Notes under the pieces: generated by a model
What the model was told of the DNA's origin: nothing
The model's input: only the letters and a program-made list of their open reading frames with translations
The model's database searches: none
Translations under genes and position numbers: made by a program
From: Chiloscyllium plagiosum
Taxonomy: Eukaryota
DNA length: 64,000 nt
Direction: 5' to 3'
NCBI RefSeq assembly: GCF_004010195.1
Contig: NC_057718.1
Coordinates: forward strand, 62,030,981 to 62,094,980
Shown: one piece after another, positions 4,001 through 64,000 of the stretch
Layout of the letters: every line of letters starts with the position of its first letter
Position numbering within the stretch: position 1 is the stretch's first letter

Positions 4001-4115
4001 ACCCTGAAGGAGGGTTATACCTGAAATATTGACTTCACCTCCTGATGCTGCCTGGCTTGCAGTGTTCTCCTGTTTGCCTGCTTTGGATTCCAGCTTCTGC
4101 AGATTTTTTGTCTCT
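4001..4115 (+). mobile_element. Short non-coding PLE terminal-repeat derivative with a decayed hammerhead motif
   Basis: CTGAAGGAGGGTTATACCTGAAATATT followed by the tail GATGCTGCC...CCAGCTTCTGCAG. Flanked by an imperfect direct repeat cattataa(a/g)ttaa(t/g)gc at 3970-3985 and 4116-4131. Confidence 0.65.
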
Positions 4116-4795
4116 CATTATAAGTTAAGGCAGCCTTCACTACTTCATCTAAACCTGATACTTTGCTGCTTCAAGTTTTAAAACACTTTGGAATGCTAGA
4201 AAAAATGTTAAGTTTTTTTTGGTCTTACCTGACTTCCAAAAGAACAAAAAATAAACTGTGATGATAACAACCATTACTTTGGTCGATAAACTGCCTCACA
4301 TAAATATGGCTTTAATCTGCTGATTTTCAAGTAACCATTAAGTCCATTCATGGAATTACATGCAGGGCTGAGCACTAAAACTCTGACTTGAACTCAGAGT
4401 GGGAATTGCACTGGGGAGAGCTGGGGTCTTGTCTGGGTGTCCCAGTCAGTTTTCCACTGGGTGGTAATCACTCGCCAGTGGATGGAAGAGCATTTTAAGG
4501 TCATAAGGAACAGACCCAGGCAGTAAAGGAATTCTCATGCAAGAGCTGGAGGCAGGGAAACGAAAACATTCTTTGCCAGACCCAAAACACAAGAGTAACT
4601 CCCTTTGTCCATATAAGTAATGAAGAAAAAAAAAATGGACTTATTTCTTTGGATTTCTTCACATTCCCCTGCCGTCTTCACCTGCCTGGGAAACTACAAG
4701 TGGTTTCCTTGTTCAGGACAACACAAAATAGAAATCAGTTGTCAATGAGATCATGGCATCAGATCTAAACATTTAAAGAGGGATTCCTTATCCAG

Positions 4796-4912
4796 TTCTG
4801 AAGAATGGTCCCCGGACCCAAAACATCTCCACAAATGTTGCTAGACCCTAGTTCTTCCAGCAATTTCTGTTTTATCAGATTTGCAGCATCCACAGTTCTT
4901 TGATTTTTATTC
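4796..4912 (+). mobile_element. Short PLE terminal-repeat derivative with a decayed hammerhead motif
   Basis: CTGAAGAATGGTCCCCGGACCCAAAAC plus a PLE-type tail. Direct repeat ccttatccag at 4786-4795 and 4913-4922. Confidence 0.65.
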
Positions 4913-5004
4913 CCTTATCCAGCTGGAGCTGATTTGGCCTCTTCACATGGGCAGGTTAAAATCCAAAGATAAGGGAAGGGCATTTCAGGGTAAGTTCACT
5001 GGCT

Positions 5005-14460: not shown

Positions 14461-14532
14461 GAGGATCTCTTCTAATTAAGTTCTTTTAGTTGCACACAGA
14501 AATTGATAGACATCTTTTAAAAGTTTTAGTAT

Positions 14533-15770
14533 GTGCATGGGAAATCATGTCTCATAAGCTTGATTGAGTTTTTTGAAAAATTAACAAAGAGGACTGATGA
14601 GAGCGGAGCAGTGGAAGTGATCTATATGGACTTCAGTAAGGCGTTCGACAAGGTTCCCCATGGGAGACTGGTTAGATCTAATGAAATACAGGGAGAACTA
14701 GCCATTTGGATAAAGAACTGGCTCAAAGGTAAAAGACAAAAAGTATTGGTGGAGGGTTGTTTTTCAGACTGGAGGCCTGTGACCAGTGGAGTGCCACAAG
14801 GATCAGTGCTGTGTCCACTACTTTTCATCATTTATATAAATGATTTGGATCTGAGCATAAGAGGTATAGTTAGTAAGTTTGCAGATGACACCAAAATTGG
14901 AGGTGCGGTGGATAGCGAAGAAGGTTAACTCAGATTACAATGGGATCTTGATCAGATGGGCTGATAAGTGGCAGATGGAATTTAATTCAGATAAATGCGA
15001 GGTGCTACATTTTGGGAAAGCAAATCTTAGCAGGGCTTATACACTTAATGGTGAGGTCCTAGGAAGTGTTGCTGAACAAAGAGACCTTGGAGTGCAGGTT
15101 CATAGCTCCTTGAAAGTGGAGTCACAGGTGGATAGGATAATGAAGGCGGCGTTTGGTATGCTATTCTTTATTGGTCAGAGTATTGAGTACAGGAGTTGGG
15201 AGGTCATGTTGCGGCTGTACAGGACATTGGTTAGGCCACTGTTGGAATATTGCGTGCAATTCTGGTCTCCTTCCTATCCGAAAGATGTTGTGAAACTTGA
15301 AAGGGTTCAGAAAAGATTTACAAGGATGTTGTCACAGTTGGGGGATTTGAGCTTTAGGGAGAGGCTGAACAGGCTGGGGCTGTTTTCCCTGGAGCGTCGG
15401 AGGCTGAGAAGTGACCTTATAGAGGTTTACAGATTATGAGGGGCATGGATGGGGTAAATAGACAAATGGGGAGTCCAGAACTCAAGGGCATAGGTTTAGG
15501 GTGAGAGGAGAAAGATATAAAAGAGTCCTAAGGGGCAACTTTTTCATGCTGAGGATGGCACGTGTATGGAATGAGCTGCCAGAGAAAGTGGTGGAGCTTT
15601 GCACAATTGCAACATTTGAAACCATCTGAATGTGTTTATGAATAGGAAGGATTTGGAGGGATATGGGCCAGTTGCTGGCAGATGCAACTAGATTGGGTTG
15701 GGATATCTGGTTGGTATGGACAAGTTGGACTGAAGAGTCTGTTTCTGTGCCGTACATCTCTATGACTCTA
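14533..15770 (+). mobile_element. 5'-truncated CR1 (HER1-like) LINE
   Basis: RT motifs [28 protein letters not shown] and RPLLEYCVQFWSP. Tail CTCTATGACTCTAT. Confidence 0.95.
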
Positions 15771-16191
15771 TATTAAAAAAATATTAAATTTCCTAAGAAA
15801 CCATTGACCAATATATACTAATAAAATGAGTAAATAGGGGAGTAAAGTTTTCACAAATAATTTTCAGTGATTCTTTCAGGTGGTGAACCACCCTTAATTG
15901 TTTGGTTTTGTTGATAAACACATTTTAGGTGCATTGATACAACTACACAATGTACCCATTCTAAAAACATCAAACAGTATTTTATAACAGGCTGAATGGT
16001 CTTACTTCCAGTCCTATGCTTTATGGTCTTAACATAAGAAAAAAGAGCAACGAATTCTGTCATACTGCATGAACTGATTGTGCTGGCTCATGGAAGGTTT
16101 TACATTTGTGTTCGTAGAACTGGGTTTCAGCAGGAACTTCAACCTTGGAGTTTTGGAAAACCAACACAATTTGCCAGAAACTCCAAATCGT

Positions 16192-16912
16192 TATAGAGTC
16201 ATAGAGTCATAGAGATGTACAGCACGGAAACAGACCCTACGGTCCAAGCCGTCCATTGCCGACCAGATATTCCAATCCAATCTAGTCCCACCTGCTAGCA
16301 CCCAGCCCATATCCCTCCAAACCCCTCCTATTCATATACCCATCCAAATGCCTCTTAAATGTTGCAATTGTACCAGCCTCTACCATTTCCTCTGGCAGCT
16401 CATTCCATACACGTACCACCCTCTGCGTGAAGAAGTTGCCCCTTAGGTCTCTTTTATATCTTTCCCCTCTCACACTAAACCTATGCCCTATAGTTCTGGA
16501 CTCCCCAAACCCAGGGAAAAGACTTTGCCTATTTACCCTATCCCTGCCTCTCATAATTTTGTAAACCTCTATAAGGTCACCCCTCAGCCTCCGATGCTCC
16601 AGGGAAAACAGCCCCAGCCTGTTCAGCCTCTCCCTGTAGCTTAAATCCTCCAACCCTGGCAACATCCTTGTAAGTCTTTTCTGAACCCTTTCAAGTTTCA
16701 CAACATCTTTTCGATAGGAAGGAGACCAGAATTGCACACAATATTCCAACAGTGGCCTAACCAATGTCCTGTACAGCCACAACATGATCTCCCAACTCCT
16801 GTACTCAATACTCTGACCAATAAAGAAAAGCTACCAAACGCCTTCTTCACTATCCTAACTACCTGTGACTCTACTTTCGAGGAGCTATGTACCTGCACTC
16901 CAAGGTCTCTTT
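16192..16912 (-). mobile_element. CR1 LINE 3' fragment
   Basis: ORF 16282-16785 is the RT C-terminus. (ATAGAGTC)n tail. Confidence 0.95.
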
Positions 16913-16959: not shown

Positions 16960-17550
16960 CAGTCTTGAAAAGACTGGGTGACCACTTCACTGAACACCTA
17001 CGCTCTGTCTGCAAAAAAGACCCTGAGTTTCCAGTTGTCTGCCACTTCAACACACCATGTTGTTCCCTGGCCAACATCTCCATCTCAGGCTTGCAGCACA
17101 GTGCAAGCTGGAAGAACAGCAGGTCATTTTCTATTTGGGGATTCTACAGCCTTCTGGACACAATATCAAGTTCAACAGTTTTAAAGCTTGAGGCACCTTC
17201 TCCAATGTCCTCACCCCAGCCCCCACACACCAGGCCGTGTTATCACATGGTCTGCTTTTACACACTACCCATTGTAAACACTAATAATCTCCAATAGCAG
17301 CCTTTTATCCTCCTAGTCTGACTGTTATTATCCACTCCTTTGCCTTCTCTCTGTTGGAGTTGTATCTCCACCTATTGTTTACTCCTTCACCCTTCCCCCC
17401 CACCCTGCATTCTGCATTAAAAAAGATTTTTACTAGTTACCGACAGTTCTGAAGAAGGGTCATTGGACCCAAAATGTTAACACTGATTTCTCTCCACAGA
17501 TGCTGCCAGACCTGCTGAGATTTTCCAGCAATTTCTGCTTTGGTTTCTGA
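16960..17550 (+). mobile_element. PLE 3' fragment (end of GIY-YIG domain plus terminal repeat with a decayed hammerhead at 17446-17482)
   Basis: KRLGDHFTEHLRSV...VCHFN. The motif reads CTGAAGAAGGGTCATTGGACCCAAAATGTTAAC. Confidence 0.85.
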
Positions 17551-18039
17551 AAAGGACAACAGTCACCCAAGATGCATTAATTGTTACTGGATTCACAGTA
17601 ATTCTCGCATAGTGTGAGAGAATCGAAAATGGCAGCCTACACTTTCAATATAGCATTTCTGCTCTGCAAGGCTCCATATTCAAGAAAGTAATTATTTTTT
17701 CTACTTAGCTTTTGGATAGTCCCTTTAACCCATTATTGGTTTGGGATTAAATCATTCAGCACTCCCTGAAATCCAGGATAAGATTAATATTTTAGTTTGT
17801 GAAACACAGACCCTGAAATTCTGTTAGTTTCTTGTATAATTTGTGTTGAGCCATTACTGTGCAGATTCTGCAATCTTCCGTCAAAGTGCAGCAGGGGTCA
17901 TTAAAAAATCACAGAAATTCAACTGCTTTTGTCAAGTTCTAAGTCTAGAAGCTGTTGCTGGAGACAATAACAAACAACTGTTGAGCAAATTCATACTATA
18001 TTCCTCTGTTCCCTACAATTCAGGTGTTAATTAAAACCT

Positions 18040-18634: not shown

Positions 18635-20938
18635 CTGAAATTATAAGAGAGATGAATTAAAAAATTCAAACCTCCTGTGCATTGTACATTAACTGCCCAG
18701 GAACAGGCTTAACATAGGACCAATTTATTATTTTGAAATGCAAAGTATGTCACTGCCAATTAATGATTCAATCCTTTAGCATTTTCATAACACTTCTGGA
18801 ATTAAATTGAACTAGCAGTATTTTCTGCGCAGGAGTCCTGCACTTTGATAACTATTTCTAAACTTAAACTAGTGAAACAATACAATAATGTGAGTATTCC
18901 ATAACGGCATTGATATCACTTCTTAAAATGGGCTGGATAAATGAATGTAGCAATTATAACACTGTTACTGATGTATAGCTCTGTTTAGATTAAGAATATC
19001 TAGAATTATGGAAACATAGTTTCTGAAGAATAAAATCATTATTTCGGTAACTCTCTTCTGTATTATCTTCAGTCACTTGTTAGCCATGCCCTTGATTTCT
19101 TGAGGTGGCCCATCTGCAGTTGTTTTTAAAATCGCAGGAAGGTATCATGATTTAGTAACCCTAGAGAATGCCCCAGATATAAATATTATTGTACTTGTGC
19201 TACTAAATATTCAACATTTATTTAATGATTAGTCAATGGCCATAATGAAGTGACCATGCATTTTTAAAATTTGGCCCTACATTTTAAATCAAAGTATCAT
19301 GGAAACATCTACTACCCCCTCCACCCCACCTTTGCCTTTCTTAAAACATTTACAGTAGTTGAAACATAAAACTATTTTTGAAAACCACAATCAAAATCAT
19401 AGCCAATGCAGTAGTACTTATATACATGCTGAAGATTAATATTTGGAAGTGTATAATCCATTCATGCCTTACAAACAGCATTGTATCTCAAACAATTATC
19501 AAATTAAGTAACAGCTTCCTAATTCTGACAATTTATCACATTTATCAAGTGCTTTTCAATGGATATCAGTTTTGGATTAAAGAGTCCAGTCATGAATCCT
19601 GTACTTTGAGTTAATGTCAGTGGTAGAAACCCCATGACATAGCTTATGATCTAATTTTATTAAACTGTGCTTTAGGCAACAATATCTCTTTGGTTAGGGA
19701 ATAGCGCTTTAATGACTTTCCGAGTATTATAACTATCTCTTTTAATGATTTAATGAACTGTTTCAGTATTTAGTGCAATAGCCTTTAATTGAATACTACT
19801 TAAGAAGTATTAGCTAATTTTATCTATTTGCTTAGAAATGTTTGACCTGTTTCTCTGTTAATAACCTCAGCGATGAATATGCCCTTAATCTACTGGCCTC
19901 TATAGCTGAGAAAATTATGCCACTGCCTGTTAGGAATGAAAAAACACACTTATGGTCAGCAGGTTTAATTTGTTTAATCAGTTTGTCATACATTGAATAC
20001 TAACAGGAAGAGGTTAAGGAGTTTTTGTCTATATGTCAAGTTCAATTCCTGAAAGAAATATCTTGAATCCAATATCAGAGGTAGAACAGAAAACAGACCA
20101 AAGTAAAATTTTCTATAATGATCACTTCTACTAAAACTATAAACCTGGCCTTTTACAACTTGTGTACAAGTTTGCTAAAAATAATGCGCAGAACAAATGT
20201 TCACCAATACACTTAAACATTTCTTCACATAACAACATAAAATAATTTTTCTTCCTAGATGAACAGAAAAATTTCAGTGGTGTAATTAGCAATAAATTGC
20301 TGATATTTTTCTTTGTTTAAGGTTAAAAAGGATTTTAAATTTGAAATGCTTTCTTTATGTGGACACTTTCTGATAATCTCCAAATGCACATTGATCATCT
20401 CACTTGCTATGACAATGATTTTACACAAGTTACTGTAGGATATCTCTCACAATTTATTAACTTTGATAGCACAGTAGAGTGTATTTAATATGAATGCAAT
20501 AAATTCATATTCATCATAATGCACAAATACACTATACATTTCACTGCTATGTGACTGGAGCTGCCAAGATACAGGATTTTTTCATGAGAAGATTAATGAG
20601 GAAACAGAGCTATTAGTTTCTCTCTTAAATTGTTCAAAGAAAATGCTATAGACTTGGCAGGCCTACATGCTAAGGCTGACTTCCACTTTGCAACAATGAC
20701 CCCAACTGGTGCTTTCCAAGGAACTGCAATGGGAATTACTTCAAATAATAGTGGAGGAGTTTTGATCGTCTATTTTCTTACAAATATCCTCATTAATACT
20801 CATAACGAAGGCTAACACTTAGTGTCTGCTGCGTGCACTATGCAACATGCAGAAATGTACGTTGGTAATAAAACACTACAGAACAATGTTAAAAACCACA
20901 CAACATCAGGTTATAGTCCAACAGGTTTAATTGGAAGC

Positions 20939-20975
20939 TCACTAGCTTTCGGAGCGACGCTCCTTCATCAGGTGG
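20939..20975 (-). ncRNA. Minimal type I hammerhead ribozyme motif (intact core)
   Basis: cac-CUGAUGA-a-GGAGC-guc-GCUCC-GAAA-GC-UA-gug. Stem I is cac/gug and stem II is 5 bp. Confidence 0.8.
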
Positions 20976-21338
20976 TTGTGGAGGACACAATTGTAAGGTA
21001 CAGAATTTATAGCAAAAGTTTACAGTGTGATGTAACTGAAATTATACATTGAAAAATACCTTGATTGTCTGTTGAGTCTTTCACCTGTTCAAATACCATG
21101 ATAGTTTCACTTCTTTCATGTGTAAATCACAAAACCTTTTTTTAAAAGTTCTTTTTTTAAAACCTCTTTTTAAAAAAGGTTTTGTGATTTACACATGAAA
21201 GAAGTGAAACTATCATGGTATTTGAACAGATGAAAGACTCAACAGACAATCAAGGTATTTTTCAATGTATAATTTCAGTTACATCACACTGTAAACTTTT
21301 GCTATTAATTCTGTGCCTTACAATTGAGCCCTCAACAA

Positions 21339-45832: not shown

Positions 45833-45835
45833 TAT

Positions 45836-46461: not shown

Positions 46462-49400
46462 GAGTCATAGAGATGTACAGCATGAAAACAGAGCCTGCAG
46501 TTCAACTTGTCCATGTTGATATCCTAACCTAATATGGTCCCATTTGCCAGCAGCTAGCCCATATCCCTCTAAACCCTTCCTATTCATATACCTATTCAGA
46601 TGCTTTTTAAATGCTGTAATTGCACCAGCCTCCATCACTTCCTCTGACAGCTCATTCCATACATGCACTGCCCTCTGCATGAAATTGTTGCCCCTTAGGT
46701 CCCTTTTATATCTTTGCCCTCTCACCCTCAAGCTATGTCCACTAGGTCTGGAGTCCCCCACCCAGGGAAAAGACTATCTATGTCCTCCATGATTTTATAA
46801 ACCTCTATAAGGTCACCCCTCAGCCTCCGACACTCTCAGGAAAACAGCCCCCAGCCTATTCAGCATCTCCCTATAGCTCAAGTCCTCCAACCCTGGCAAC
46901 ATCCTTGTAAATCTTTTCTGAACCCTTTCAAGTTTCACAACATCCTTCTGATAGGAAAGAGACCAGGATTGCACGCAGTATTCCAATAGTGGCCTAACCA
47001 ATGTCCTGTGCAGCCGCAACATGACCTCCCAACTCCTGTACTCCATGCTCTGTCCAATGAAGGAAAGCATACCAAAAACCTTCTTCACTATCCTATCCAC
47101 CTGCGACTCTACTTTCAAAGAACTATGAACCTGCACTCCAAGGCCTCTTTGCTCAGCAACACTCTCCTGGACCTTACCATTAAGTGTATAAGTCCTACTC
47201 TGATTTGCTTTTCCAAAATGCAGCACATCGCATTTATCTAAATTAAACTCCATCTGCCACTCCTCAGCCCATTGGCCTATCTGACCAAGATCCTGCTGTA
47301 CTCTGAGGGAACCTTCTTCACTGTCCACTACACCTTCAATTTTTTTGTCATCTGCAACCTTACCAATTATACCTCCTATGTTCACATCCAAATCATTACA
47401 TTAATGATGAAAGGTAGTGGACCTAGTACTGAACCTTGTGGTACACCACTGGTAACAGGCCTCCCCCTTTGATCCAGTTCTGTATCGAAATAGCTAGTTC
47501 TCACTGTATTCCATGAGATCTAATTTTGCTAACCAGTCTACCAAGAGGAACCTTGTTGAATGCCTTACTGAAGTCCAGAAAGATCACATCCACCTCTCTT
47601 CCCTCATCAATCCTCTTCGTTACTTCTTCAAAAAACTCAGTCAAGTTCGTGAAACATGATTTCCCACACACAAAATCACGTTGACTATCCATAATCAATT
47701 CTTGTCTTTCCAAACACATGTAAATCTTGTCCCTCAGGATTCCCTCCAACAACTTGCCCACCACCAATGTCAGGTTCACTGGTCTATAGTTTCCTGGCTT
47801 GTCCGTACCACCTTTCTTAAATAGTGGCACCATGTTAGCCAATCTCCAGTCTTCCAGCACCTCACCTATGATACAAGCATATCAGCAGGGGCCCAGCAAT
47901 CACTTTCCTAGCTTCCTACAGAGTTCTCGGGTACACTTGATCAGGTCATAGAGTCATAGTCATAGAGATGTGCAGCATGGAAACAGACCCTACGGTCCAA
48001 CCCATCCATACCGACCAGATATCCCAACCCAATCTAGTCCCACCTGCCAGCGCACGTCCCATATCTCTCCAAACCCTTCCTATTCATATACCCATCCAAA
48101 TGCCTCTTAAATATTGCAATTGTACCAGCCTCCACCACATCCTCTGGCAGCTCATTCCATACACATAAAACCCTCTGCGTGAAAAAGTTGCCTCCTTAGG
48201 TCTCTTTTATATCTTTCCCCTCTCACCCTAAACCTATGCCCTCTAGTTCTGGACTCCTCCACCCCAGGGAAATTTATCCTATCCATGCCCCTCATAATTT
48301 TGCCTATTTATCCTATCCATGCCCCTCATAATTTTGTAAACCTCTATAAGGTCACCCCTCAGCCTCCAATGATTCCGGGTAAACAGCCCCAGTCTGTTCA
48401 GCCTCTTCCTGTAGCTCAGATCCTCCAACCCTGGCAACATGCTTGTAAATCTTTTCTGAACCATTTCAAGTTTCACAATATCTTTCCGANNNNNNNNNNN
48501 NNNNNNNNNNNNNNNNNNNNNNNNNNNNNNNNNNNNNNNNNNNNNNNNNNNNNNNNNNNNNNNNNNNNNNNNNNNNNNNNNNNNNNNNNNNNNNNNNNNN
48601 NNNNNNNNNNNNNNNNNNNNNNNNNNNNNNNNNNNNNNNNNNAGAGGGCCCAGTACCGATCCTTGTAGCACTCCACTGGTCACAGGCCTCCAGTCTGAAA
48701 AACAACCCTCCACCACCACCCTCTGTCTTCTACCTTTGAGCCAGTTCTGTATCCAAATGGTTAGTTCTCCCTGTATTCCATGAGATCTAACCTTGCTAAT
48801 CAGTCTCCCATGGCCCTGGGGATTTATCCACCTTTATGCGTTTAAAGACATCCAGCACCTCCTCCTCTGTAATATGGACATTTTTCAAGATGGTCACCAT
48901 CTATTTCCCCACATTCTATATCTTCCATGTCCTTCTCCAAGTAAACACTGATGCAAAATACTAATTTAGTATCTCCCTCATCTCCTGCCGCTCCACACAT
49001 AGGCTACCTTGCTGATTTTTGAGCAGCCCTATTCTCCCCCTTGTTAAGCTTTTGTCCTTAATGTATTTATAAAATCCCTTTGGATTCTCCTTAACCCTAT
49101 TTGCCAAACCTATCTCATGTCCTCTTTTTGCCTTCTGATTTTCCTCTCAAGTATACTCCTACTACCTTTATACTCTGAGGATTCTCTCGATCTCTGCTGT
49201 CCATACCTGACATACGTTTCCTTCTTTTTCTTAACCAAAAACTCAATTTCTCTGGTCATCCAGCATTCCCTACACCTACCAGCCTTGCCTTTCAAAGGAG
49301 CAGGAATATAATGTGTCTGGACTCTTACTATCTAATTTTTGAAGGCTTCCCATTTTCCAGCTGTCCCTTTAGCTGCAAACATCTGCACCCAATCAACCTT

Positions 49401-50350: not shown

Positions 50351-50929
50351 GAAGAATGCTTCAGAGAACATCTCCGGGACACATGGATGAAGCAATCCCA
50401 CCGCCCCGTGGCTGAACACTTTAACTCCTCTTTCGACTCTGCCAAGGACATGCAGGTGCTAGACTTCCTCCATCGCCAAACCCTAACCACCCGACACCTG
50501 GAGGAAGAACGCCTCATCTTCCACCTTGGGACCCTCCAACTACATGGGATTAATGTGGATTTTGCCAGTTTCCTCATTTCCCCTCCCCCCACCTTATCCC
50601 AGATCCAACCTTCTAACTTGGCATCACACTCATGACCTGGCTAATCTGTCCATCATCCTTCCCACCTATCCGCTCTACACTCCTCTTCAACTTATCACCA
50701 TTACCTCCACCTTCATCTACCTATCGCACTCTGAGCTATCTTCCCCCCATTTCCACCACCCTCTCATTTATCTCTCTACACCCTTGGCTCCCTTACCTCA
50801 TTCCTGATGAAAGGCTTATGCCTGAAACGTTGATTGTCCTGCTCCTCAAATGCTGCCTGACCTGCAATGCTTTTCCAGCACCACACTCTCAACTCTGATC
50901 TCCAGCATCTGCAGTCCTGACTTTCTCCG
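50351..50929 (+). mobile_element. 5'-truncated PLE with a 16-bp TSD
   Basis: FREHLRDT...PVAEHFNS...LIFHLGTLQLHGIN. TSD acctgtggtca(t/a)actt at 50335-50350 and 50930-50945. Confidence 0.9.
50800..50835 (+). ncRNA. Hammerhead motif with a compensatory stem II change
   Basis: CUGAUGA-a-AGGC-uuau-GCCU-GAAA-CG-UU-ga. Confidence 0.7.
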
Positions 50930-51038
50930 ACCTGTGGTCAAACTTCACGGTAAGAGTGTGGAATCTCTTTCAGTACAGCTACATGGCAGTATTTTCAAAA
51001 GTTTAGATCAGAGTGGTGCTGGACTTCAGAGTTGCGAA

Positions 51039-51171
51039 TGTGTTGCTGGAAAAGCACAGCAGGTCAGGCAGCATCCAACGAGCAGGAGAATCAAGCCTCA
51101 TTCCTGATGAAAATGTCAATGTTCCTGCTCCTCGGATGCTGCCTGACCTGCTGTGCTTTTCCAGTAACATA
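51039..51171. mobile_element. Miniature fold-back PLE-tail element (about 50-bp arms)
   Basis: TGTTGCTGGAAAAGCACAGCAGGTCAGGCAGCATCC and its reverse complement enclose CCTGATGAAAATGTC. Confidence 0.8.
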
Positions 51172-52593
51172 CTTATTCCAGAGGGAGCTCAGTGTCTTAT
51201 TTGGGATGGCGACCCAATTAAACACAAAGTAGCCATGTTCCATTAGGTTCTGAATAGGCTCAACCAGGGGATATTAAAGGAACACTTACTTGATCCCACA
51301 TAAGTGCCTTCCGGCCTTCCTTACCCGCCTGAAACAAATGTTGTTGTCCATAGTGTTACTGAGGACGATAAAGGAGGGAGGCCTACGTGACCTGTTAAAG
51401 TTAGGTTGGTACCAATCCCTGAATAAGGACATGTTATACCCTGCAGACTGCCATTCCCATGCACCCTCGGTGTTGCCAAGTTCACCAGAAACGCTCCGGC
51501 ACAGTAGCCATTCAGCCACCTCATGCCAGTGGAAAGGTATGGGCCACAAAGTAATACCCTCCCCACACCCCAAGTACGTGGGCACATACCCAGCAGTGAC
51601 TATCTCTCTGACACGGGCTGTCTGGTAGTAGGCCAGGTACAAAGAAGTGTTATACATCAGAGTGGTCAGTTTGAAACCCATCCATCCCAGAGATCATTTC
51701 CACCAAATTCACAAATATGGAATACATTTTCTTCTCTAATGGATATCAGTTCCTGTACTGACTCTCTTGCAGTCGGTTCTGTGGATCCACTGGAGTTGGC
51801 CTTGCACCTTCACTGCCAGGGGGGTAGTTAGCAGCACTTGAAATGGTCCTTTCCACCTGGGTCCCAGGTTTCAGTCCCAGTTCTTTATCAGGACGAAATC
51901 CCCAGGCTCGGCAGCAGAGTAATCCCCTTCAGGCGGGTCGTTGCTCCCTTGGTAGGCTTGATGGACCAGCGAATGCAAACTTTGAAGAGTTTTGGTCAAT
52001 TTCTGCAGGTATTTCCCCACCTCCTCCCCCAGTGTGTTCATGTCTAACCCCTCAGGGAGGGGAGGTCAAATTACTCCTGGTCGCCATGAGGTCCTCACAG
52101 GCTTCCCATGCAAAACCTCAACAGGAGACAGCCCAGTTTTACCTGCGGGAGTGGCCCTCATATGGAACAGGGGCCAAGGTGGGATCCTGGCTTAGCTTGG
52201 CCAATTTATTCGTCAGGGTGCCATTTGCTTGCTCCACCACCCCAGCTGCCTTTGGATGATGGGTGCAATGGAATTGCTGCTTTATGGCCAGAGCCTTGCA
52301 GACCTCTTTATTAATGTTAGCCACAAAGTGTGGCCCGTTATCAGAACTTATTATCTCAGCGAGTGTATAGCGGCTATTATTTCCCTCAATAATATTTTCA
52401 CTACTGTTGTAGCCGCGTTGTTTATCATCGGGATTGCCCCAATCCACCTGCTGAAGACATCTGTTATCACCAAACACTATTTGTAGTATTGTAACTTAGG
52501 TAGCTCTATGAAATCTAATTGTAAACAATTTAAAGGCAAGGGGGTAGTTCCAGATCTGCAAGGCATCCCCTTTCCAGCATTAGCTTTCTTACA

Positions 52594-54439
52594 GGTTTTG
52601 AAAAAGAAACAGTGCAAGAAAGCAGACGATGACATATCCCTCCCAGATTGTCTCAATGCCTTCTATGCTCACTTTGAACAGAATTTCGGCAGAGAGGTAA
52701 CACCTATTCTGAGAAGTCATGATGAACCTATCCCAACAGTCACTGCATCAGAGGTCAGATCAGTTTTCCTTCGTGTGAATCCAAGAAAAGCGATGGGACC
52801 AGAAGAAGTACCAGGCCGTGCACTCACAGCATGGGCAGATCAACTGGCACAAGTCTTTTCAGACATCTTCAACCTCTCTCTGCAGCAGGCCACTGTCCCT
52901 GCCTGTTTCAAGAGGGCCAACATCATCCCTGTGCCTAAGAAGGCTCATGCAGCATGTCTCAATGACTACCGCCCAGTGGCCCTAACTTTGGTGGTCATGA
53001 AGTGCTTTGGAAGTAGGATTCTTGCGTAGCTGTTCTTGGTGTCAATTTGTTCTAGAGAGGAGTGAAGGGCAAGTGGTATGGCATCTGACGTGGATCTGTT
53101 GGTCCGATAGGCCAACTGGAGTGGGTCAAGAGTAGTGGGAAGGCTGGGGTTGAAAGGCTGGTCATGGCATTAATCAACTCCATCCTTCCCACTACTCTTG
53201 ACCCACTCCAGTGGGCCTATCGGACCAACAGATCCACATCGGATGCCATACCACTTGGCCTTCACTCCTCCCTAGAACAAATTGACACCAAGAACAGCTA
53301 CGCAAGAATCCTACTCATTGACGACAGTTCAGCCTTCAATACTATTACCCCCTCAAGACTGATTACTAAACTTAGTGACCTCGGACTAAGCCCCACTCTC
53401 TGCAACTGGATCCTCAGTTTCCTGACCCACAGGCCACAATCAGTGAAGATTGGGGACAGTATTTCATCCTCACTAACACTCAACACTGGGGACCCCAGGG
53501 ATGCTTACTCAGCCCCCTACTGTACTCACTGTATACCCATGACTGCGTTGCCAAATACCAGACAAATGCCATTTACAACTTCGCTGATGACACCACCATA
53601 GTCGATCAAATCTCAGATGGCGACAAAACAGACTACATACGGGAGGTGGAAAACCTGAAAAATGGTGCACCGAGAACAACCTAGCTCTCAATGCCAGCAA
53701 AACCAAAGAAATCATTATTGACTTTTGGTGAGATGTTAGTTATGCCCCCCTACATATTAACAGCACAGAGGTGGATCAAGTGGAGAGTATCAAGCTCCTT
53801 GGAATGGCTATCCACAACAAGCTTTCTTTGCCTCTTCATGTGGACGCACTGGTTACAAAGGCCCAACGTCTCTTCTTCCTCATGTGTATGAGGAAATTTG
53901 GCATGATGGAAAATACCCTTGCAAACTTTTATAGGTGTGCCATCGAGAGCATTCTGTCTGGATGTATCACTACCAGGTATGGCAACTGTACATTCAAGAT
54001 TGGAGACGGTGACAGGGAGTGGTGAACTCAGCCCAGACAATCACAAAGGCCAACCTCCCATCTGCCAGGAAAGGCTGCAACTGGATCCTCAGTTTCCTGA
54101 CCCACAGGCCACACTGTAAAGGAAAGGCTGCCAGCAATCTTAAAGATTCATCCCACCCTGGCAATGTTTTTCTACAACCTCTACCATCGGGGAGAAGGTA
54201 CAGAAGCTGAACACACACACCAGCTGGTTTTGAAACAGTTTCTACCCTTACTGTTGTTAGAATACTGAATGGATTCTCAAACTCTTAACTTTCGCCTGTA
54301 CCTGTATTTTTGCTTTTGCCGCTGTTTACCTATTATTTACTGTCTATGCTACTTAACTGTGTAATCTGTCTGTATTGCTTGCAAGATAAAGCTTTTCACT
54401 GTGTTTCGATACACATAACAATAAATTCAATTCAATTCA
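52594..54439 (+). mobile_element. 5'-truncated Rex1/Babar non-LTR retrotransposon inserted in the ERV integrase
   Basis: [53 protein letters not shown] and NFADDTT. Tail AATAAATTCAATTCAATTCA. Confidence 0.9.
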
Positions 54440-56852
54440 AACTAAGCATGATTTTGCCAATTTCTCGCTGTTTTCTGGAAATCAGGGTGCCACCAGGTCT
54501 TTTGCAAAATATTCACTACTCCCTCCTTGCCTGTGTGTACAGTTATGTACATAGTCTTCCAGGATTGGTAAAAGCAAGGAAGGAACACAGACCTGTCCCA
54601 CAAGGGTCATCCACAGATTGGCATGGTCATTAAGGGAGCACCCCATCTATGACTACAGTCTGTGCTCCTCCGCAGGAGCGTCTCCCTGTAAGTCACATAT
54701 CTCACCCAGATCTGCCATACCCATCCGCATGTTTTGTAACTAGGTGTTGCTGTGAACCTGATGTGACCAGGAAAGTGGGGTGTAAGGCTGCCTGCTTGGC
54801 GGCGGTGTCTACCTGCGCGCTGCCCTTGAAGACCCTGTCAGTTGCTCAAATGTGAGCTGAACATTTGATTACCACTAGGTTGGACTGTCGCTGCAAAGCC
54901 TGCAAGAGATTATATTCAAATACAGCATTACTGATGGGTTGTCCCGTGGAAGTTAAAAATCCCCTATGCTCCCATAAAGTGCCATAATCATGAGCGACCC
55001 TGAATGCAATACAGGAGTCTGTTTAAATATTGGCTGATTTCCCGTCTGCAAAAATGCAAACTCGAGTCAGGGCAAACAGCTCAGCCTTCTATGCTGACAG
55101 GGGTATCTCAAATTCCGCACGGCCAACTACCTCGGAATCCATGCCAAACACATATCTAGAACGCCGCTGACCTGCGGGTGAAACAAAGGAGCTGATACCA
55201 ACATAGAAGGTCAAGTTTGCGTTGTCAAGTGGCTGGTATGTTAGGTCACTGTGGGCAGAGATAAAAAGGTGGTTCTGTAACAGGCAGGCGTGGTCAGGAG
55301 GAGAGGTGCTGCAGGGGCTCAGTTAAAAATGTAGCAGGTTTCCAGGTGGTGCAATGGGAGAAGGTCAGTAGTGGTTTGTTTAGTTAGGACTGCCTCGTAT
55401 TTGTTTTAGCGTGCCTGTGTCAGATGTTGAGTCGGCTGGGAGGTAAGGAGGTCGACTATCGAATGAGGGGTTAAAACAATCACAGGCTGATGTAAGGTTA
55501 TATTTGAGGCTGCCTGCACGAGGACACGTATAGCAGGAAGTACCTGTAAGCACGGTGGGAGGCCAGTGGCCACTGGATTCAGTCTTGTTGAGTAGTGTGC
55601 CACCAGTCGCTTCCTGTCACTATGCGTTTGGGGAAGGATGGCAGTGGCACATCCACCTTTGATGGTGACATACAGCTGGAATGGTCAGCTGTATAGGGGT
55701 CAACCGAGGGCCAGTGCTAGCAGAAGGCTGTTTCTTAGCTCCGAAAACACTGTCAGCTGCTCTGCTGCAAATGTAAAGGTGGGAGGAGCATTGGTGGATG
55801 CCAGTGGGGTTTGTAGGTGAGTATACAGGGCAATGTCCAGTACCCATTGCCTGCAAACATTCAGAGGCCTGAGGAAAGCCCACATTTGGCTGCACAGTGG
55901 CTCAGCGGTTAGCACTGCAGCCTCTAACAGCGTCAGTATGCCAGACCTGAGCTCAGGATCCCAAGAAGTACTGAGATGCTCTGCAGCATGCTGATGTTTT
56001 GACCCTTCCTGTTTATCATTGAGCACTTACGCTTCCTGTTCCCGCTGCCTTTTTTGTCTCCCATCTACCCACTCACATTCTGCCTTCAACGCCTCCCAAG
56101 TCGTGGGAGTGCCCTCCTTTGTCAATACCTCTACTCCCCTGTCACAAGCATTATTTCTCCAGCTGGCTAGTAAGGTGTCGTGCCATTTACTATCAACCCG
56201 CACCGTCCATCCCTTTATAAGGGACTTCCAACTCTTCCCACAATTTTTACTCCATATCAGGTTCATCACCTGCTCGCAGGAGTCCACATCCCATGTCCCA
56301 CCCGGGGTCAGATGCTATCCCCTAATCATTTGTGTAGTGCTGCACTTAATGCTCATAAAGCATGTTCCTGATCAGGCAGTCTCTCGCACATGCTCTGAAA
56401 AGGTGGGGGGGGGGGCCTTCCCAGCCATATCCAGCAATTGTCCCATGGTATCTTCATGCTCGAACAAATTTCCACGGGCCATATTAGGTCTGCGGGGTGA
56501 GAAATTTCAGTGAGCCCAACCTTTTGCCTTTCCCTGCTTTAATTTCCACCGGCCATATTGGTAAGAGGCAACTCCCGTTTCCGACTCCATCAGGTAGCGG
56601 CAACCCTGACCGGGATTCCCAGTCCCGACCTTTTCCTCAGGAATAATAGAGTAGCCAATGTCAGCCTGCAGCAATTTAGAGCAATGGGACAAGCTATTCC
56701 AACCTTACATGCTGAGTCCGGGTGGTCCATTCAGCCTCTTCAAGGTACCAGTTCCATCAGGCGAGGGGCAGACTGTCGGGCTGAACATAAGGAGTGGATC
56801 AATGGTGCTGGAAGAGCACAGCAATTCAGGCAGCATCGAGGAGCTTCAGCAA

Positions 56853-56888
56853 AATCGACGTTTCGGGCAAAAGCCCTTCATCAGGAAT
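56853..56888 (-). ncRNA. Minimal hammerhead ribozyme motif (intact core)
   Basis: uc-CUGAUGA-a-GGGC-uuuu-GCCC-GAAA-CG-UC-ga. Confidence 0.8.
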
Positions 56889-57047
56889 AAAGGCAGAGAG
56901 CCTGAAGCGTGGAGAGATAAGCTAGGGGAGGGTGGGGCTGGGGAGAGATTATCATAGAGTACAATGGGTGAGTGGGGGAGGAGATGAAGGTGATAGGTCA
57001 GGGAGGAGAGGGTGGAGTGGATAGGTGGAAAAGGAGCTAGGCAGGTC

Positions 57048-57749
57048 NNNNNNNNNNNNNNNNNNNNNNNNNNNNNNNNNNNNNNNNNNNNNNNNNNNNN
57101 NNNNNNNNNNNNNNNNNNNNNNNNNNNNNNNNNNNNNNNNNNNNNNNNNNNNNNNNNNNNNNNNNNNNNNNNNNNNNNNNNNNNNNNNNNNNNNNNNNNN
57201 NNNNNNNNNNNNNNNNNNNNNNNNNNNNNNNNNNNNNNNNNNNNNNNNNNNNNNNNNNNNNNNNNNNNNNNNNNNNNNNNNNNNNNNNNNNNNNNNNNNN
57301 NNNNNNNNNNNNNNNNNNNNNNNNNNNNNNNNNNNNNNNNNNNNNNNNNNNNNNNNNNNNNNNNNNNNNNNNNNNNNNNNNNNNNNNNNNNNNNNNNNNN
57401 NNNNNNNNNNNNNNNNNNNNNNNNNNNNNNNNNNNNNNNNNNNNNNNNNNNNNNNNNNNNNNNNNNNNNNNNNNNNNNNNNNNNNNNNNNNNNNNNNNNN
57501 NNNNNNNNNNNNNNNNNNNNNNNNNNNNNNNNNNNNNNNNNNNNNNNNNNNNNNNNNNNNNNNNNNNNNNNNNNNNNNNNNNNNNNNNNNNNNNNNNNNN
57601 NNNNNNNNNNNNNNNNNNNNNNNNNNNNNNNNNNNNNNNNNNNNNNNNNNNNNNNNNNNNNNNNNNNNNNNNNNNNNNNNNNNNNNNNNNNNNNNNNNNN
57701 NNNNNNNNNNNNNNNNNNNNNNNNNNNNNNNNNNNNNNNNNNNNNNNNN
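57048..57749. other. Assembly gap
   Basis: Run of N. Confidence 1.
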
Positions 57750-57913
57750 TTGTCCGACCTGCCTAGCTCCTTTTCCACCTATCCACTCCACCCTCTCCTC
57801 CCTGACCTATCACCTTCATCTCCTCCCCACTCACCCATTGTACTCTATGCTACTCTCTCCCCACCCCCACCCTCCCCTAGCTTATCTCTCCACGCTTCAG
57901 GCTCTCTGCCTTT

Positions 57914-57950
57914 ATTCCTGATGAAGGGCTTTTGCCCGAAACGTCGATTT
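57914..57950 (+). ncRNA. Minimal hammerhead ribozyme motif (intact core)
   Basis: Identical to the motif at 56853-56888 on the opposite strand. Confidence 0.8.
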
Positions 57951-58162
57951 TGCTGAAGCTCCTCGATGCTGCCTGAATTGCTGTGCTCTTCCAGCACCAT
58001 TGATCCAGAATCTGGTTTCCAGCATCTGCAGTCATTGTTTTTACCTTGAACATAAGGAGTGGCCTAGGGTAAAATACCCCGGGGCGCCCTGACCACTCTG
58101 TTCTGCCCGATGCAAACTTTTGAGCTGCTTACTCAGCCCAGTGTGATGTTCCCTATATTGAG

Positions 58163-58549: not shown

Positions 58550-59495
58550 AGTAGTGTGGTGAGGAACAGACAAAGGCAACACATGGTCTGTGCAGGAGAG
58601 AGGGAGAAAGAAAGCCCCACTGCTAACTGACACAGCAGTGAGCCTGCGCAGTTACTGCCCTTGCTATTTGAATTGATGTATTGCTGGACATTGGAATGCA
58701 TCCGGGAAAATTAATAAACAGTGAAATTCACAACTGATCTTGGAGGAACCTGTTCGGGAGAGGTCACAGCACAGAAACAGGTAAGTGAATAATTTTAGGT
58801 GTGGCCTTGCTGTAAGTCTGCAGTAGTGAACAGAGTGGGCTCTTTCTTGATTATGTATTTTATTGAGCTATGCCTCTTAATTAAATTTAAAAATTTAAGC
58901 CATAAGTATTAAGTTAGCCTGGAGCAGTTTTTTTAAAAGAATAAGGCGGTGCTATTTTCTGGTTCTAAAGATTGGAAGAAGCAAAAATGGCCCTTAGTTG
59001 CATGACATGCTCTTCTTGTCAAATGTGGGAGTTTAGGGAGAGGTTATGTGTTAGTGAAGATTATATCTGCAATAAATGCCGTTGGTTGCAAATCCTATCA
59101 GATTGAATGGATCGGTTGGAGAGACCGTTAGAGGCAATGAGGAATTTACATGAGCAAGGGGGTGTGATGATGGCAGTTATAGGAAGGGAGAAAAGTCGCA
59201 GATATAGTCACATAGATGGGTTAACTCCAGGAAAGGTAAGAGAGGTAGGCAGGAGTCTTCTGTGCCTATCCCCATTTCAAACAAGTATGCTGTTATGGAA
59301 AATTAGGGGTGATGGATTCTCAGGGGAATGTAGCATGAACAGCCAAGTTTCTGGCATTGAGACTGGCTCTAACGCAGTGAGGGTACGTTGGGTTCCATAG
59401 AACGATTATGTCAGGGGACTCTCTAGTCCGAGACACTGACAGACGTTTCTGTGGACAGCAGTGAAAAATCAGAATGGTTTGTTACCTCCATGGTG
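58550..59495 (+). mobile_element. CR1 5' UTR and ORF1 fragment
   Basis: CSSCQMWEF...YICNKC zinc finger and GDSLVRDTDRRFCG esterase remnant. Confidence 0.8.
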
Positions 59496-59509
59496 AACAC
59501 CAATATAAA

Positions 59510-60478
59510 CTACTGATTCAGGATAGTCAACATGGCTTTGTGTGTGGGAAATCATGTCTCACAAACTTGACTGAGTTTTTTGAAGAAGTAACAAAGAAGA
59601 TTGATGCAGTAGATGTGATCTATATGGATTTCAGTAAGGCGTTCAACAAGGTTCCCCATGGGAGACTGATTAGCAAGGTTAGGTCTCATGGAATACAGGG
59701 AGAACTAACCATTTGGATACAGAACTGGCTCAAAGGTAGAAGACAGAGGGTGGTGGTGGAGGGTTGTTTTTCGGACTGGAGGCCTGTGACCAGTGGAGTG
59801 CCACAAGGATCAGTGCTGGGCCCTCTACTTTTTGTCATTTACATAAATGATTTGGATGTGAGCATAAGAGGTACAGTTAGTAAGTTTGCAGATGACACCA
59901 AAATTAGAGGTGTAGTGGACAGCGNNNNNNNNNNNNNNNNNNNNNNNNNNNNNNNNNNNNNNNNNNNNNNNNNNNNNNNNNNNNNNNNNNNNNNNNNNNN
60001 NNNNNNNNNNNNNNNNNNNNNNNNNNNNNNNNNNNNNNNNNNNNNNNNNNNNNNNNNNNNNNNNNNNNNNNNNNNNNNNNNNNNNNNNNNNNNNNNNNNN
60101 NNNNNNNNNNNNNNNNNNNNNNNNNNNNNNNNNNNNNNNNNNNNNNNNNNNNNNAAAGTCTTTTCCCTGGGGTCGGGGAGTCCAGAACTGGAGGGCATAG
60201 ATTTAGGGTGAGAGGACAAAGATATAAAAGAGACCTAAGGGGCAATCTTTTCACGCAGAGGGTGGTACATGTATGGAATGAGCTACCAGAGGATGTGGTG
60301 GAGGCTGGTACAATTGCAACATTTAAGAGGCATTTGGATGGGTATATGAATAGGAAGGGTTTGGAGGAATATGGGAGGGGTGCTGGCAGGTGGGACAAGA
60401 TCGGGTTGGGATATCTGGTCGGCGTGGCCGGGTTGGACCGAAGGGTCTGTTTCCATGCTGTACATCTCTATGACTCTA
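59510..60478 (+). mobile_element. CR1 RT and 3' end spanning a gap
   Basis: SQHGF...YMDFSKAF...[10 protein letters not shown]...KFADDTK, then the tail. Confidence 0.95.
59925..60154. other. Assembly gap
   Basis: Run of N. Confidence 1.
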
Positions 60479-61048
60479 CTCATTTTGTACCTCAGCAGGG
60501 CCACTGCCTGCACCAATAGATCTTAATTCTCGTCAGGAGCTGGCTTTTCTGACATCCCTCTCATTGTTTTGATATTTTCAGAAGACATTTGGATCCCCTT
60601 TCATCTTGGACTCCAAGCTATTCTCATACTGTTCCCCCCTTATTTCTTTTTCCACTTCTCTATATATTTTATATTCAACTTGATTCTCCCATACAGTCAA
60701 GTTGACATTTATCATGCACCCCTTCATATGCTTCCACCTTTTTCTAAAAATATCACCACCCCAAGCAAATGATCAACCTAATTTTTTTTTTACCAAAACA
60801 AAGAGATCATTAAACACACAAAAATAATTAGATATACACTCACTGATCTAGATATGCATCTTCATTCCACAGGTTCAAATCTTCTGAGTTGGGCATGAGA
60901 AAATACCTTTCTTCTGTTTCAACAAATTCCTACATTGACCAAATTCCCAGCCTCCATTCTGCTGGTGATGCACGTGGGTTTGTCTCCAAGCCTTTGTGCT
61001 GTGCTTGCTGACACTTCATTTATAAAATGCCCGAGCTGGACAACTCAC

Positions 61049-61109
61049 CATGTGGGGAACTGTGGAATCAAACTATGCCCTACAATTGTTTCTAGTACCA
61101 ACATTCTGC
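61049..61109 (-). CDS. Putative internal exon, 61 nt, phase 1/2 (RMLVLETIVGHSLIPQFPT-W)
   Basis: Acceptor tttattttatgttgaag and strong donor ATG|gtgagt, in unique sequence. Phase is compatible with the 21840-21900 exon, though other exons may lie between them. Confidence 0.5.
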
Positions 61110-62249
61110 CTTCAACATAAAATAAATTAGTTTAATAACATGACATTTGGATTAAATAAATAGTCTCCATTTGAGAAGCTTCCTAATTTATTTGCAAAAC
61201 ATACAATAAAGTAAATTGCACTGAAATGTATTATTGCACCATTTTTGCAAAATACCATTATCCTTGCTTTTTTGGCTCATTTCTATCTACAAACTAAAAC
61301 CTGGAAATTGATTTGAGCAAGTCTACTGTACAAGCTCTTAACAAATTTCATTCTTTACTAATTCATTGGAAACATGAGCCCATTTAAAATAAGTGGGCTA
61401 ATGCCCTTGTCAGATAACATTATGTTACAGTTATTTCCAGACTTAAAATAGGCTTGCCAAACATTGTCCCAAAGATAATGCCCTAAATGATTATCATTAC
61501 TTATATTGTTGACAGATTTATTTTTTGGTTTTAGGGTGTAACCTCTTCTTGTTCCATCTGTACATTGTTTGCGTAAAGCAATCCCACCAAATAGAATTGG
61601 TAGGAAGATTGCTGGTTCTTTAGATATCATAATTGCTAATCTAAAATGATGCACTGTATAGCTTTACTATTACCATTTTAGTAATTAGCAAAAAACACAT
61701 TTGAAAACAATACTGCAGTTATTTAATTCAGTCTGTGAACACTGACATATTTGCAGTCATGTGCAAGTACAACTGTTATCTATACCTCATTAATTGTTTG
61801 ACAAATTCATATAATTGTACATGTAATCAGAATTAAACTTTGTAACAAACAAACTCATACTTGTACACACATTCAGAATTAAATTTTGTAACACTTTACG
61901 GCTTTCCAGAAAAGGTAACAGGTTTTTGGAATGGTGGCATATATTAAAACTCAATTTATAATATGCCCCAGCCTAAGCAATTCCGCTCCAGGAACAGAGT
62001 TTTACACAATCACACATTACGTCTGTTTAAAGTTGTGTTCAATTCATTACTTTGTTTATTTTCATGTTTGGCATTTAACATGGCAAGAATTCATAAAGTT
62101 AATTAAAATGCAGCAAATTTTCTCTTCAACTTTCTGGAAATATCTTTCTGCTAACTGAACCAATCAAAACTGTAACAAAGAAAGATGTAATTCAAGTCAT
62201 TGTTGTCGCACCAGCTAAGAAAGGAAAAGAACTGGCTGACTGTTCTAAT

Positions 62250-64000
62250 CTGAGCTTCTAGCACTTAGTCCATAGCCTTATAGATTACAGCATTTCAGGT
62301 GCAGAGTCAGGTACCTTTTAAACAAGTTGAATATTTCTAATTCAATCACTAAACTGGGTAGCAAATTTCAAACACACTGTGTTAAGATTTTACTTCATGA
62401 CATTTCCTAACCCCTTGACCATTTTAAATCTGTGTTCCTTGGTAAATGACCTCTCCACGCAGTGAAACAGATCTCTCCTGTCTCCTCTAACTAGGTCCCT
62501 CACAATTTTGTACCCCTCAATTTCCTGTTCCAAGGCATTCCAATCTTTCCTTGTAGCTGCAATTTTCACACTAGCTCCCCAGCAATTAAAGGTAAAGTCA
62601 CCAGAGGACAATAAGACAATGATGAGTTTAACATGAGGATCACCACATCCCAGCAAGGGTTAAGGTTGAGAAGGCTGGACCTTCATGGTAACCTCAGCCA
62701 GTACAAGAACTGAACATGTGCTTTTGGTGACATCTGGATCATAAACCAGCTCTTCAACCATTGTGCTCTACCTCTAACACAGTGCAGAACTGTACACAGA
62801 ACTACAGCTGTGATCTAACCAGTGATTATATAATTCCATCATTTCATCCTATTTTTGTATTCTGTACTTTGTCAAGTTGACAACCGGAAGCAGCAGATTC
62901 AAACCACTATAAATGCCGGAGAAAAGATCACAGAAGCGCTTCACAGGAGGCTCCCAAGCACTGAGGATGTCACCTAGACAAGGGACGAAACGTCTGCAAC
63001 ACAAATTCCCAGCTCGGCGAACAGAACCACGACAACGAGCACCCGAGCTACAAATCTTCGCACAAACTTTGATCATCCCATTTATTGTGTATTCATTGCT
63101 TTGTTTACCCTCTCCACGCACATTTCCTCACACTTCTCCAAATTTCACTATTAATCACTTTTTCACCCATTCAACCAAACCACTGAGTGACATCATTCTG
63201 AAGTTGATAGTTATCCTCTTCAGTATCAACTTCATGACCAGTTTTTGTCAATTTTCCAATCATGCTTCTTGCATTTAACTACAAATGATTAATATATCCA
63301 ACAATCAGCACGGGTCCCAACACTGAGCTCTGTGGAAAATCAGTGGAATAACAAAAGTAGGAACTGGAGCAATTCTGCAGGTTGGCAGCATCTGTGGAGA
63401 GAAAAACAGAGTTAACAATTCGAGTTGAATAACTTCTTCAGAACAGCACTGCAAACTGCCTTCCAGTTGCAGAAACATCTATTGACTCTTCCCTGTATTT
63501 TCTGTCTCTGAGTAAATTTTCAATTCACATTCGCCTTTATCTAATGGACTTTTAATTTTCTGACCAGTCTGCTTTTTGAACCTAGTCAAATGCCTTATTA
63601 AAATCCATGTGGACAATATCCACTACATTAACCAAATCAATCATTCTTGTATTTCCTCAGAAAATTCAATTAGGTTAGTAAGAACAACACTGACTATCCC
63701 TGATACACCATGCTAAGAGTTTATCTCATATCTCAGAATTTTCTCACCACCAAAATCAAACTTGACTGGCTTATAATTATTTGGCTTATCCTCTGCATCC
63801 TTTTTAAATAGTGGTACATGTTCATAGGCCTCCAATCCTCTGGTATTTTAACAGCGCCTAGTGCCGACTGGAAATGATATTCAGAGTATCTGGTATTTCC
63901 ATTGTGGCTTCCTTTAACAGTCTGGGATACAAACCAACTGGCCCGAGTGATTCATTCACCTCAAAGGATATGAGGTCCTCTAATACGTTTCCTCACATTG
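62250..64000 (-). mobile_element. Old CR1 LINE interrupted by a SINE (62590-62770) and PLE fragments (about 62850-63070 plus, 63350-63445 minus)
   Basis: Degenerate RT and 3' motifs on the minus strand. Confidence 0.7.
62958..62997 (+). ncRNA. Hammerhead ribozyme motif of a distinct PLE family
   Basis: gca-CUGAGGA-u-GUC(a)CCU-agaca-AGG-GAC-GAAA-CG-UC-ugc. Stem I is gca/ugc. Confidence 0.75.

Follow-up and report, generated by a model that had tools for sequence, protein, structure and literature searches.

Introduction

Penelope-like elements (PLEs) of metazoans carry minimal hammerhead ribozymes in their pseudo-long terminal repeats (pLTRs), and here we describe such motifs in a stretch of 64,000 nucleotides from Chiloscyllium plagiosum (contig NC_057718.1, positions 62,030,981 to 62,094,980), hereafter the window. 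The minimal hammerheads published by Cervera and de la Pena (2014, PMC4209133) share with ours the type I core, the extra base after A9, the G10.1-C11.1 pair, the palindromic 15.2-16.2 segment, the absence of stem III, the position in the pLTR and the coexistence of many families per genome, mostly as single or opposite-strand copies. They were found to be inactive alone and weak as dimers, and number about 4,000 in the coelacanth and about 9,000 in X. tropicalis. In Schistosoma, stem II has 7-8 bp and stem I 4-5 bp, whereas here they have 4-5 and 2-4 bp, respectively. According to published work, the PLE ribozyme needs a partner or the help of a protein, and what PLE hammerheads do is still described as unclear (PMC8557442). 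No shark hammerhead appears in the accessible text and supplement file 2 of PMC4209133; a PLE expansion in a shark has been reported (10.1101/443036). Our literature search found no census of shark hammerheads, with subscription journals and bioRxiv supplements lying outside it, so that a count may exist.

Other described systems resemble the window in further respects, and its overall architecture agrees with PMC4209133, PMC8557442 and PMC11167929. The Neptune and Penelope/Poseidon elements of Craig et al. (2021, PMC8557442) show the same 5′ truncation, the same inverted truncated copy at the 5′ end, the same 30-40 bp tail at one end, and a Cys linker in Neptune that is missing from Poseidon; what differs is that the tail rule is quantified here and that most of our copies are stubs of 95-130 bp. 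In the green anole Poseidon element PAc (Frangieh et al. 2024, PMC11167929), the protein cleaves both strands of the DNA, and reverse transcription begins at two internal sites. As in our families, these two starts bound the tail; PAc also has the AC-rich stem-loop of our family C, likewise yields no RNA ends at the cut site, and has uncleaved RNA as its main template. In contrast to PAc, the open reading frame (ORF) of our family A seemingly begins about 40 nt after the tail and not inside the ribozyme, and the pile of 5′ ends at the ribozyme front reported below is not described in the accessible part of that paper. The Penelope promoter of D. virilis (Schostak et al. 2008, PMC2377424) is likewise internal, of the initiator type and inside the pLTR; its start, however, precedes by 46 bp a 75-bp intron that extends up to the ribozyme, and is thus well upstream of the latter, whereas the start inferred here would lie at the ribozyme's edge. 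Finally, non-LTR retrozymes (LTR, long terminal repeat; bioRxiv 10.64898/2026.07.22.740005), reported in one chondrichthyan genome, contain the same PLE-derived type I hammerheads, but in tandem arrays, unlike the dispersed single or inverted copies found here.

Our main conclusion, to which we assign a probability of roughly 0.85, is that the window's motifs are PLE terminal-repeat ends of several families whose minimal hammerhead is expected to cleave RNA in dimeric form only, and that the genome's copies are for the most part by-products of retrotransposition and likely inactive. Such hammerheads are very numerous in this genome; since the association of PLE and hammerhead is already known, the window alone is ordinary.

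Results

Hammerhead motifs in the window

An earlier note on this DNA, made from the sequence without database searches, had listed 16 positions as intact or decayed hammerheads. Each of them does hold the described motif or its remnant, and all 16 are homologous minimal type I hammerhead motifs in PLE terminal repeats. The core elements CUGANGA, GAAA and UH are present at 7 of the 16 sites. Six of these seven, all called intact before, also passed a strict scan demanding the core, a stem II of at least 3 bp, a palindromic 15.2/16.2, UH and a stem I of at least 2 bp (C3 at 20971 on the minus strand, 40197, 50804, 56884 on the minus strand, 57918 and 62961); the seventh, at 29959, with a whole core and a broken closing pair in stem I, failed. 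In 200 dinucleotide shuffles the same scan gave a mean of 0.005 matches and a maximum of 1.

A covariance model was based on 18 non-window copies that did not include family B. Its top 15 matches (E from 1e-10 to 0.12, against a background from 0.8) were all 14 listed sites of the other families and one unlisted remnant (28747-28781, minus strand). The family B site at 20971 reached an E of 4.8 only, and that at 21343 was not listed, as expected with family B left out of the model; its homology was seen in separate comparisons. The Rfam search that the earlier note had proposed as a check returned no hammerhead in the window, either at the gathering score or at E up to 10.

The 16 motifs correspond to 13 insertions, since the arms of inverted pairs share one target-site duplication. 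The listed pairs 20939/21339, 43750/45353 and 56853/57914 are the arms of single inverted insertions; a target-site duplication of 12 or 16 bp encloses the whole pair in two of the three, and none was found around 43750/45353. No tandem arrays exist at the window's hammerhead sites: tandem units each with a hammerhead, which define retrozymes, were not found, and one direct pair is at locus L143.

Structure and covariation

The predicted covariation of stems I and II between families was borne out by the alignment, slid-register and permutation tests. All seven pairs of the two stems show two-sided (compensatory) changes; stem I, for instance, reads C-G/A-U/C-G in family B, A-U/C-G/G-C in C, U-A/C-G/G-C in D and C-G/U-A/U-A in A3. 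In the alignment of the 18 copies, 88% of cells were paired vs. 60% after shuffling and 17-41% in slid registers. The covariation score was 0.86 vs. 0.31 for shuffled alignments, none of 500 shuffles scoring as high, and 0.18 or less for the slid controls. Permutation at the level of the six families gave 1/720 for stem I and 2/720 for stem II; as kinship among the sequences inflates the shuffle test, the slid control and this permutation weigh more.

The extra base after A9, the G10.1-C11.1 pair and the palindromic 15.2-16.2 segment, which the earlier note had taken for a reduced stem III, are the majority state in A1, A2, A3, B and C. Small samples of the older families D, E, F and C2/3 frequently have G-U or CA instead, likely owing to CpG decay. 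One claimed stem II family, AGGC/GCCU, had to be abandoned. It accounts for 216 of 76,708 family A matches (0.28%), scattered over many loop variants, and among the first 100 family A matches listed the first change occurs alone in 1 and the second alone in 11 (counted by eye). Singly changed copies and the spread over loop variants are explained by two independent decay changes, and AGGC/GCCU and the GUU triplet at 50804 are likely products of decay.

Element families

The window sites belong to five families of Neptune type (A, B, D, E and F) and one probably of Poseidon type (C), in line with the at least four PLE families of minimal type I hammerheads proposed before. The motifs lie 3′ of remnants of reverse transcriptase (RT) and GIY-YIG endonuclease, and also at the head of the element body. 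Upstream of A, D and E, the remnants match ORFs that combine RT motifs with a CX4CxxC linker and a GIY-YIG domain, and the family B loci L180 and L181 represent a second lineage with the same three kinds of motif. L081, L082, L089 and L181 show RT motifs and, C-terminal to them, a GIY-YIG whose core contains Cys residues, while the CX2-5CxxC linker of Neptune elements precedes the endonuclease in L081/L082, in the D arms of the window and in L181. Families A and E are tied to the Neptune type through homology of the endonuclease end, and family F was grouped by its shared 3′ sequence alone. Judged by sequence motifs, the linker, GIY-YIG and RT together are the Neptune signature as given in PMC8557442. 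The endonuclease end of family C, a 173-aa fragment of L102 with no Cys linker and no RT seen, is likely of Poseidon type. The pLTR, the inverted truncated copy and the 30-40 bp tail at one end, typical of PLEs with an endonuclease, were all found.

It had been suggested that ORF-based annotation does not see these repeats. This holds for the ribozyme, which Rfam misses; the RT and GIY-YIG remnants, however, are present, so that repeat annotation can see the copies as PLEs. Pfam returned nothing for the PLE remnants among 12 window ORFs.

Abundance in the genome

Exact patterns of core and stems match 76,708 times for family A, 13,098 for B and 2,703 for one C variant in the 3.56-Gb genome, that is, at least 92,509 structural matches, compared with about 4,000 and 9,000 in PMC4209133, where the descriptors differ. 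The core-only pattern, in which overlapping matches may be counted twice, matches 137,530 times, its reverse 357 times. We sampled the genome at even spacing in 80 stretches of 10 kb (761,743 called bases) and found 286 element 3′ ends, 161 of which span the core start, a few self-palindromic or old matches being perhaps double-counted; 69 of the 286 keep an intact core, and 44 of these also have the palindrome and at least 2 bp in stem I. Scaled to the genome with 5% N assumed, this gives about 306,000 intact cores (238,000-387,000) and 195,000 with palindrome and stem I (142,000-262,000). Copies spanning the core occur once per 4.7 kb in the sample, as the earlier estimate of one motif per 4-5 kb had it. 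We considered the window as a hot spot and rejected this, its intact-core count being average for the genome (7 vs. 5.6 expected from the sample, p = 0.34).

These counts bear on the notion that the motifs are chance matches or assembly artefacts. Two inverted pairs do flank N gaps, as an artefact might, but the excess over the reversed pattern, the covariation, and the target duplications and tail asymmetry around pairs already refute it, and we give it practically no credence. The idea of a very large ribozyme-bearing repeat system stands as regards the huge population; a working system is not supported, because copies are mostly solitary or back-to-back and a second ribozyme on the same strand is rarely near.

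Arrangement and 3′ ends of copies

Measured from C3, the 3′ ends fall at two fixed points about 35 nt apart: about +85-92 or +121-128 in families A and B, and +75 or +111 in C. Family A has 55 short, 68 long and 11 other ends among 134 copies, and B has 15, 18 and 3 among 36. Of 51 abutting A and B pairs, 10 were unclassifiable; 39 of the remaining 41 combine a long and a short end, two are short+short and none is long+long. A back-to-back insertion thus has nearly always one tailed and one tailless arm, which fits a tail at one end (PMC8557442) together with two reverse transcription starts on both cut strands (PMC11167929). The 200 B and C matches listed include 24 pairs no more than 5 kb apart, 22 of them divergent, 1 convergent and 1 tandem; divergent motifs lie on opposite strands and hence cannot form the cis dimer proposed in PMC4209133.

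The long 3′ end of family A coincides with a pyrimidine tract that terminates in AG and precedes the likely start codon by about 40 nt. This tract (40310-40326 in the window, and homologues) resembles a 3′ splice site; no donor was found. At L143 (2134-2659, minus strand), an internally deleted direct pair holds two intact A1 cores 325 nt apart and is a natural candidate for cis-dimer cleavage.

Such a pair could also speak for stubs and hairpins being self-propagating non-autonomous elements, similar to retrozymes or miniature inverted-repeat transposable elements, with masters of their own rather than one-off by-products, as could a 9-nt hairpin centre that recurs in 4 of 10 divergent family B pairs. 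Junctions and 5′ ends, however, differ from copy to copy, tandem arrays are lacking at the window's sites, and close pairs are mostly divergent; we hold this reading to be unlikely.

5′ ends of copies

The 5′ ends were collected from copies of 80% identity or more, setting aside 20 A and 17 B weaker matches. Of 134 such A copies, 82 begin at -14 to +11 and 9 near the cut site, and of 36 B copies 19 and 1, respectively; copies thus begin mostly at the ribozyme's front edge and not at its cut site. Cleavage could have left an excess of starts at the cut site; none was found in the sample or the window list, where two of the nine nearby starts lie exactly at +28. Matches to intact A1 cores end at -3 (8,890), -4 (8,447) or -5 (4,025) in 21,362 of 39,962 cases; 20 or so of 30 fetched A1 copies with C at -5 extend far upstream. 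Among the first 100 copies listed, the base before -4 is G in 61, compared with about 16 and about 28 at the neighbouring boundaries (by eye). An untemplated G at -4 was mostly rejected, since this G usually is the last base of the target duplication. At L004, L034 and L143 the tail runs on into an ORF-like body, which means that the ribozyme also heads the transcript. The sequence around -4 resembles the initiator consensus.

The starts of stubs and the G excess suggest run-off copies of an uncleaved RNA beginning at the ribozyme, and such an excess would result if the cDNA bore an extra C templated by the cap and this C paired with a target G. About as strong for this step, and only somewhat short of even odds in our view, is an origin of the pile by endonuclease trimming, by microhomology joining at the ATT/CUGA box or by a block of RT or protein. 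It agrees with a peak about 3 nt wide rather than of one base, with the templated G before -4, and with the preference of the anole PLE endonuclease for ATT (PMC11167929), found at -4 in family A; it agrees less well with a pile that tracks the ribozyme in B, D, E and F despite differing upstream sequence, and with a G excess specific to -4.

Transcripts

RNA was represented by one single-cell poly(A) 3′-tag library of a relative, 2% of it read, with many loci pooled. In this run, family B reads were polyadenylated about 30 nt past the predicted cut, at 21398-21403 (260 and 216 reads). This is 16-20 nt downstream of an AAUAAA-type hexamer, and the DNA has no A-run there. The element may thus supply poly(A) sites (21381-21403).

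Element RNA in a poly(A) library, together with the very high copy number, might be expected if the dispersed motifs were a working host system cutting pre-mRNA, for example by dimerising in trans. We regard this as very improbable: the core decays within families, 69 of 286 ends keeping it intact, reads cross the cut site, and the published counterparts show no activity alone and little as dimers (PMC4209133).

Insertions in the window

Family E is represented by two decayed stubs, at 4793-4905 (plus strand; C3 4798, G12 lost, deletion 3′ of the core; E 0.12; 12-bp target duplication with 1 mismatch) and 63350-63444 (minus strand; C3 63441; E 0.07), and by a 3′ end at 16965-17558 (plus strand; E 6.6e-8), where a C-terminal GIY-YIG remnant (16965-17185) precedes a hammerhead that has lost G12 (C3 17449). 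Family F comprises a stub at 4002-4112 (plus strand; E 1.3e-4) with a hammerhead decayed by loss of A9 (C3 4004) and a 6-bp candidate target duplication, and a 3′ end with a decayed core at 24456-24695 (plus strand; C3 24606; E 0.025).

The family B back-to-back insertion (20884-21467), of Neptune type and enclosed by a 12-bp target duplication, has a tailless minus arm with an intact hammerhead (C3 20971, predicted cut after 20943) and a tailed plus arm (C3 21343) that has lost U16.1 and has a poly(A)-signal-like hexamer near 21381-21387. The family D inverted insertion (43672-45484) bears Neptune-type linker and GIY-YIG remnants on both arms, and both its hammerheads are decayed (C3 43777, minus strand; C3 45355, plus strand).

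Family A is the most frequent. An A1 inverted pair across an N gap (28722-30085) consists of a minus arm with a deleted core, not listed before, and a plus arm with C3 29959, described above. Also unlisted before was an A3 remnant of the 3′ part only (35955-36010, minus strand). A 5′-truncated A1 copy (39457-40326, plus strand; E 1.1e-10) has remnants of the RT C-terminus and GIY-YIG, an intact hammerhead at 40193-40228 (C3 40197, predicted cut after 40224) and a tail to about 40323. An older A1-type copy with an intact core (C3 50804) occupies 50360-50933 (plus strand), followed by an A1 palindromic stub (51017-51169) whose plus arm (C3 51104) lacks stem II and whose minus arm begins at the cut-site position. 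The A2 back-to-back insertion (56795-58047) spans the N gap 57048-57749 within a 16-bp target duplication; both hammerheads are intact (C3 56884, minus strand; C3 57918, plus strand), and the tail is on the plus arm only. The family C 3′ end, probably of Poseidon type (62878-63072, plus strand; E 2.3e-8), has an intact hammerhead with C3 at 62961 and a cut predicted after 62994; an AC-rich stem-loop lies downstream.

Other features of the window

Remnants of long interspersed nuclear elements in both orientations, CR1-like by their motifs, lie at 14500-16830, 26800-28700, 32400-33500 (with Pfam RVT_1 at 32450-33028), 36700-37450, 45800-48800 and 59400-60500. A near-perfect 150-nt hairpin (53089-53238), with Rfam microRNA matches under the gathering score, heads an RT remnant (Pfam RVT_1, E 5e-8), and an integrase-core remnant of an LTR-type element (Pfam rve, E 2.6e-4, under the cut-off) lies at 52142-52495 on the minus strand. 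A nested 39/15/9-bp tandem repeat (2391-3277) leaves frames of about 340 codons open, and two 411-bp tandem copies, 98% identical (41698-42520), are a recent duplication or an assembly artefact.

Discussion

Several observations weigh against our main conclusion. The best Pfam E values, 0.0013 for RT and 0.02 for GIY-YIG, are under the curated cut-offs, so that clade names rest on motifs and not on a tree, and the family C fragment had no Pfam match at all. Among 10 loci there was no intact full-length master, the longest open frame being 509 aa; a search of solved structures with this ORF gave no match. The commonest subfamilies, A1 and A2, have a U-U mismatch at the third pair of stem I, and the downstream stem-loops fold no better than shuffles (z from -1.1 to +1.0), though the 3′ sequences can be aligned across families. 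In family C the 5′ ends do not pile up at the ribozyme. In A1 and B, coverage by RNA reads stays level over the predicted cut, and read ends do not accumulate there in the relative's 3′-tag library, where 5′ ends cannot show; given this and the pooling of loci, the data show that uncleaved RNA exists, not that cleavage is absent.

We tentatively propose, as a possibility with the odds rather against it, that Neptune-type elements are transcribed from the first base of the ribozyme and, in family B at least, polyadenylated about 30 nt past the cut, so that the ribozyme would be their sole terminal repeat and the stubs strong-stop fossils. In the model that goes with our main conclusion, two ribozymes on the RNA of a full-length or tandem master would pair via the 4-nt palindrome and trim, perhaps circularise, the template, giving long ORF-bearing copies. 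If the RNA stays uncleaved, reverse transcription would in this model begin within the 5′ repeat, at about 90 or 125 nt, and proceed to the RNA 5′ end at the ribozyme's front edge, where it runs off and leaves a stub, and priming at both cut DNA ends would produce the hairpin insertions.

The number of motifs found here is about ten times the largest figure of PMC4209133, and Rfam sees none of them in the window. Copy ends form a countable record of where the template RNA and reverse transcription start, which makes run-off and circle models testable. If the proposal on the ribozyme as sole terminal repeat is true, dimer cleavage and ligation would replace the strand transfer of retroviruses, each failure of cleavage would leave a 'strong-stop' fossil of 95 or 130 bp, and roughly one million stubs would record a ribozyme-gated cycle of retrotransposition.

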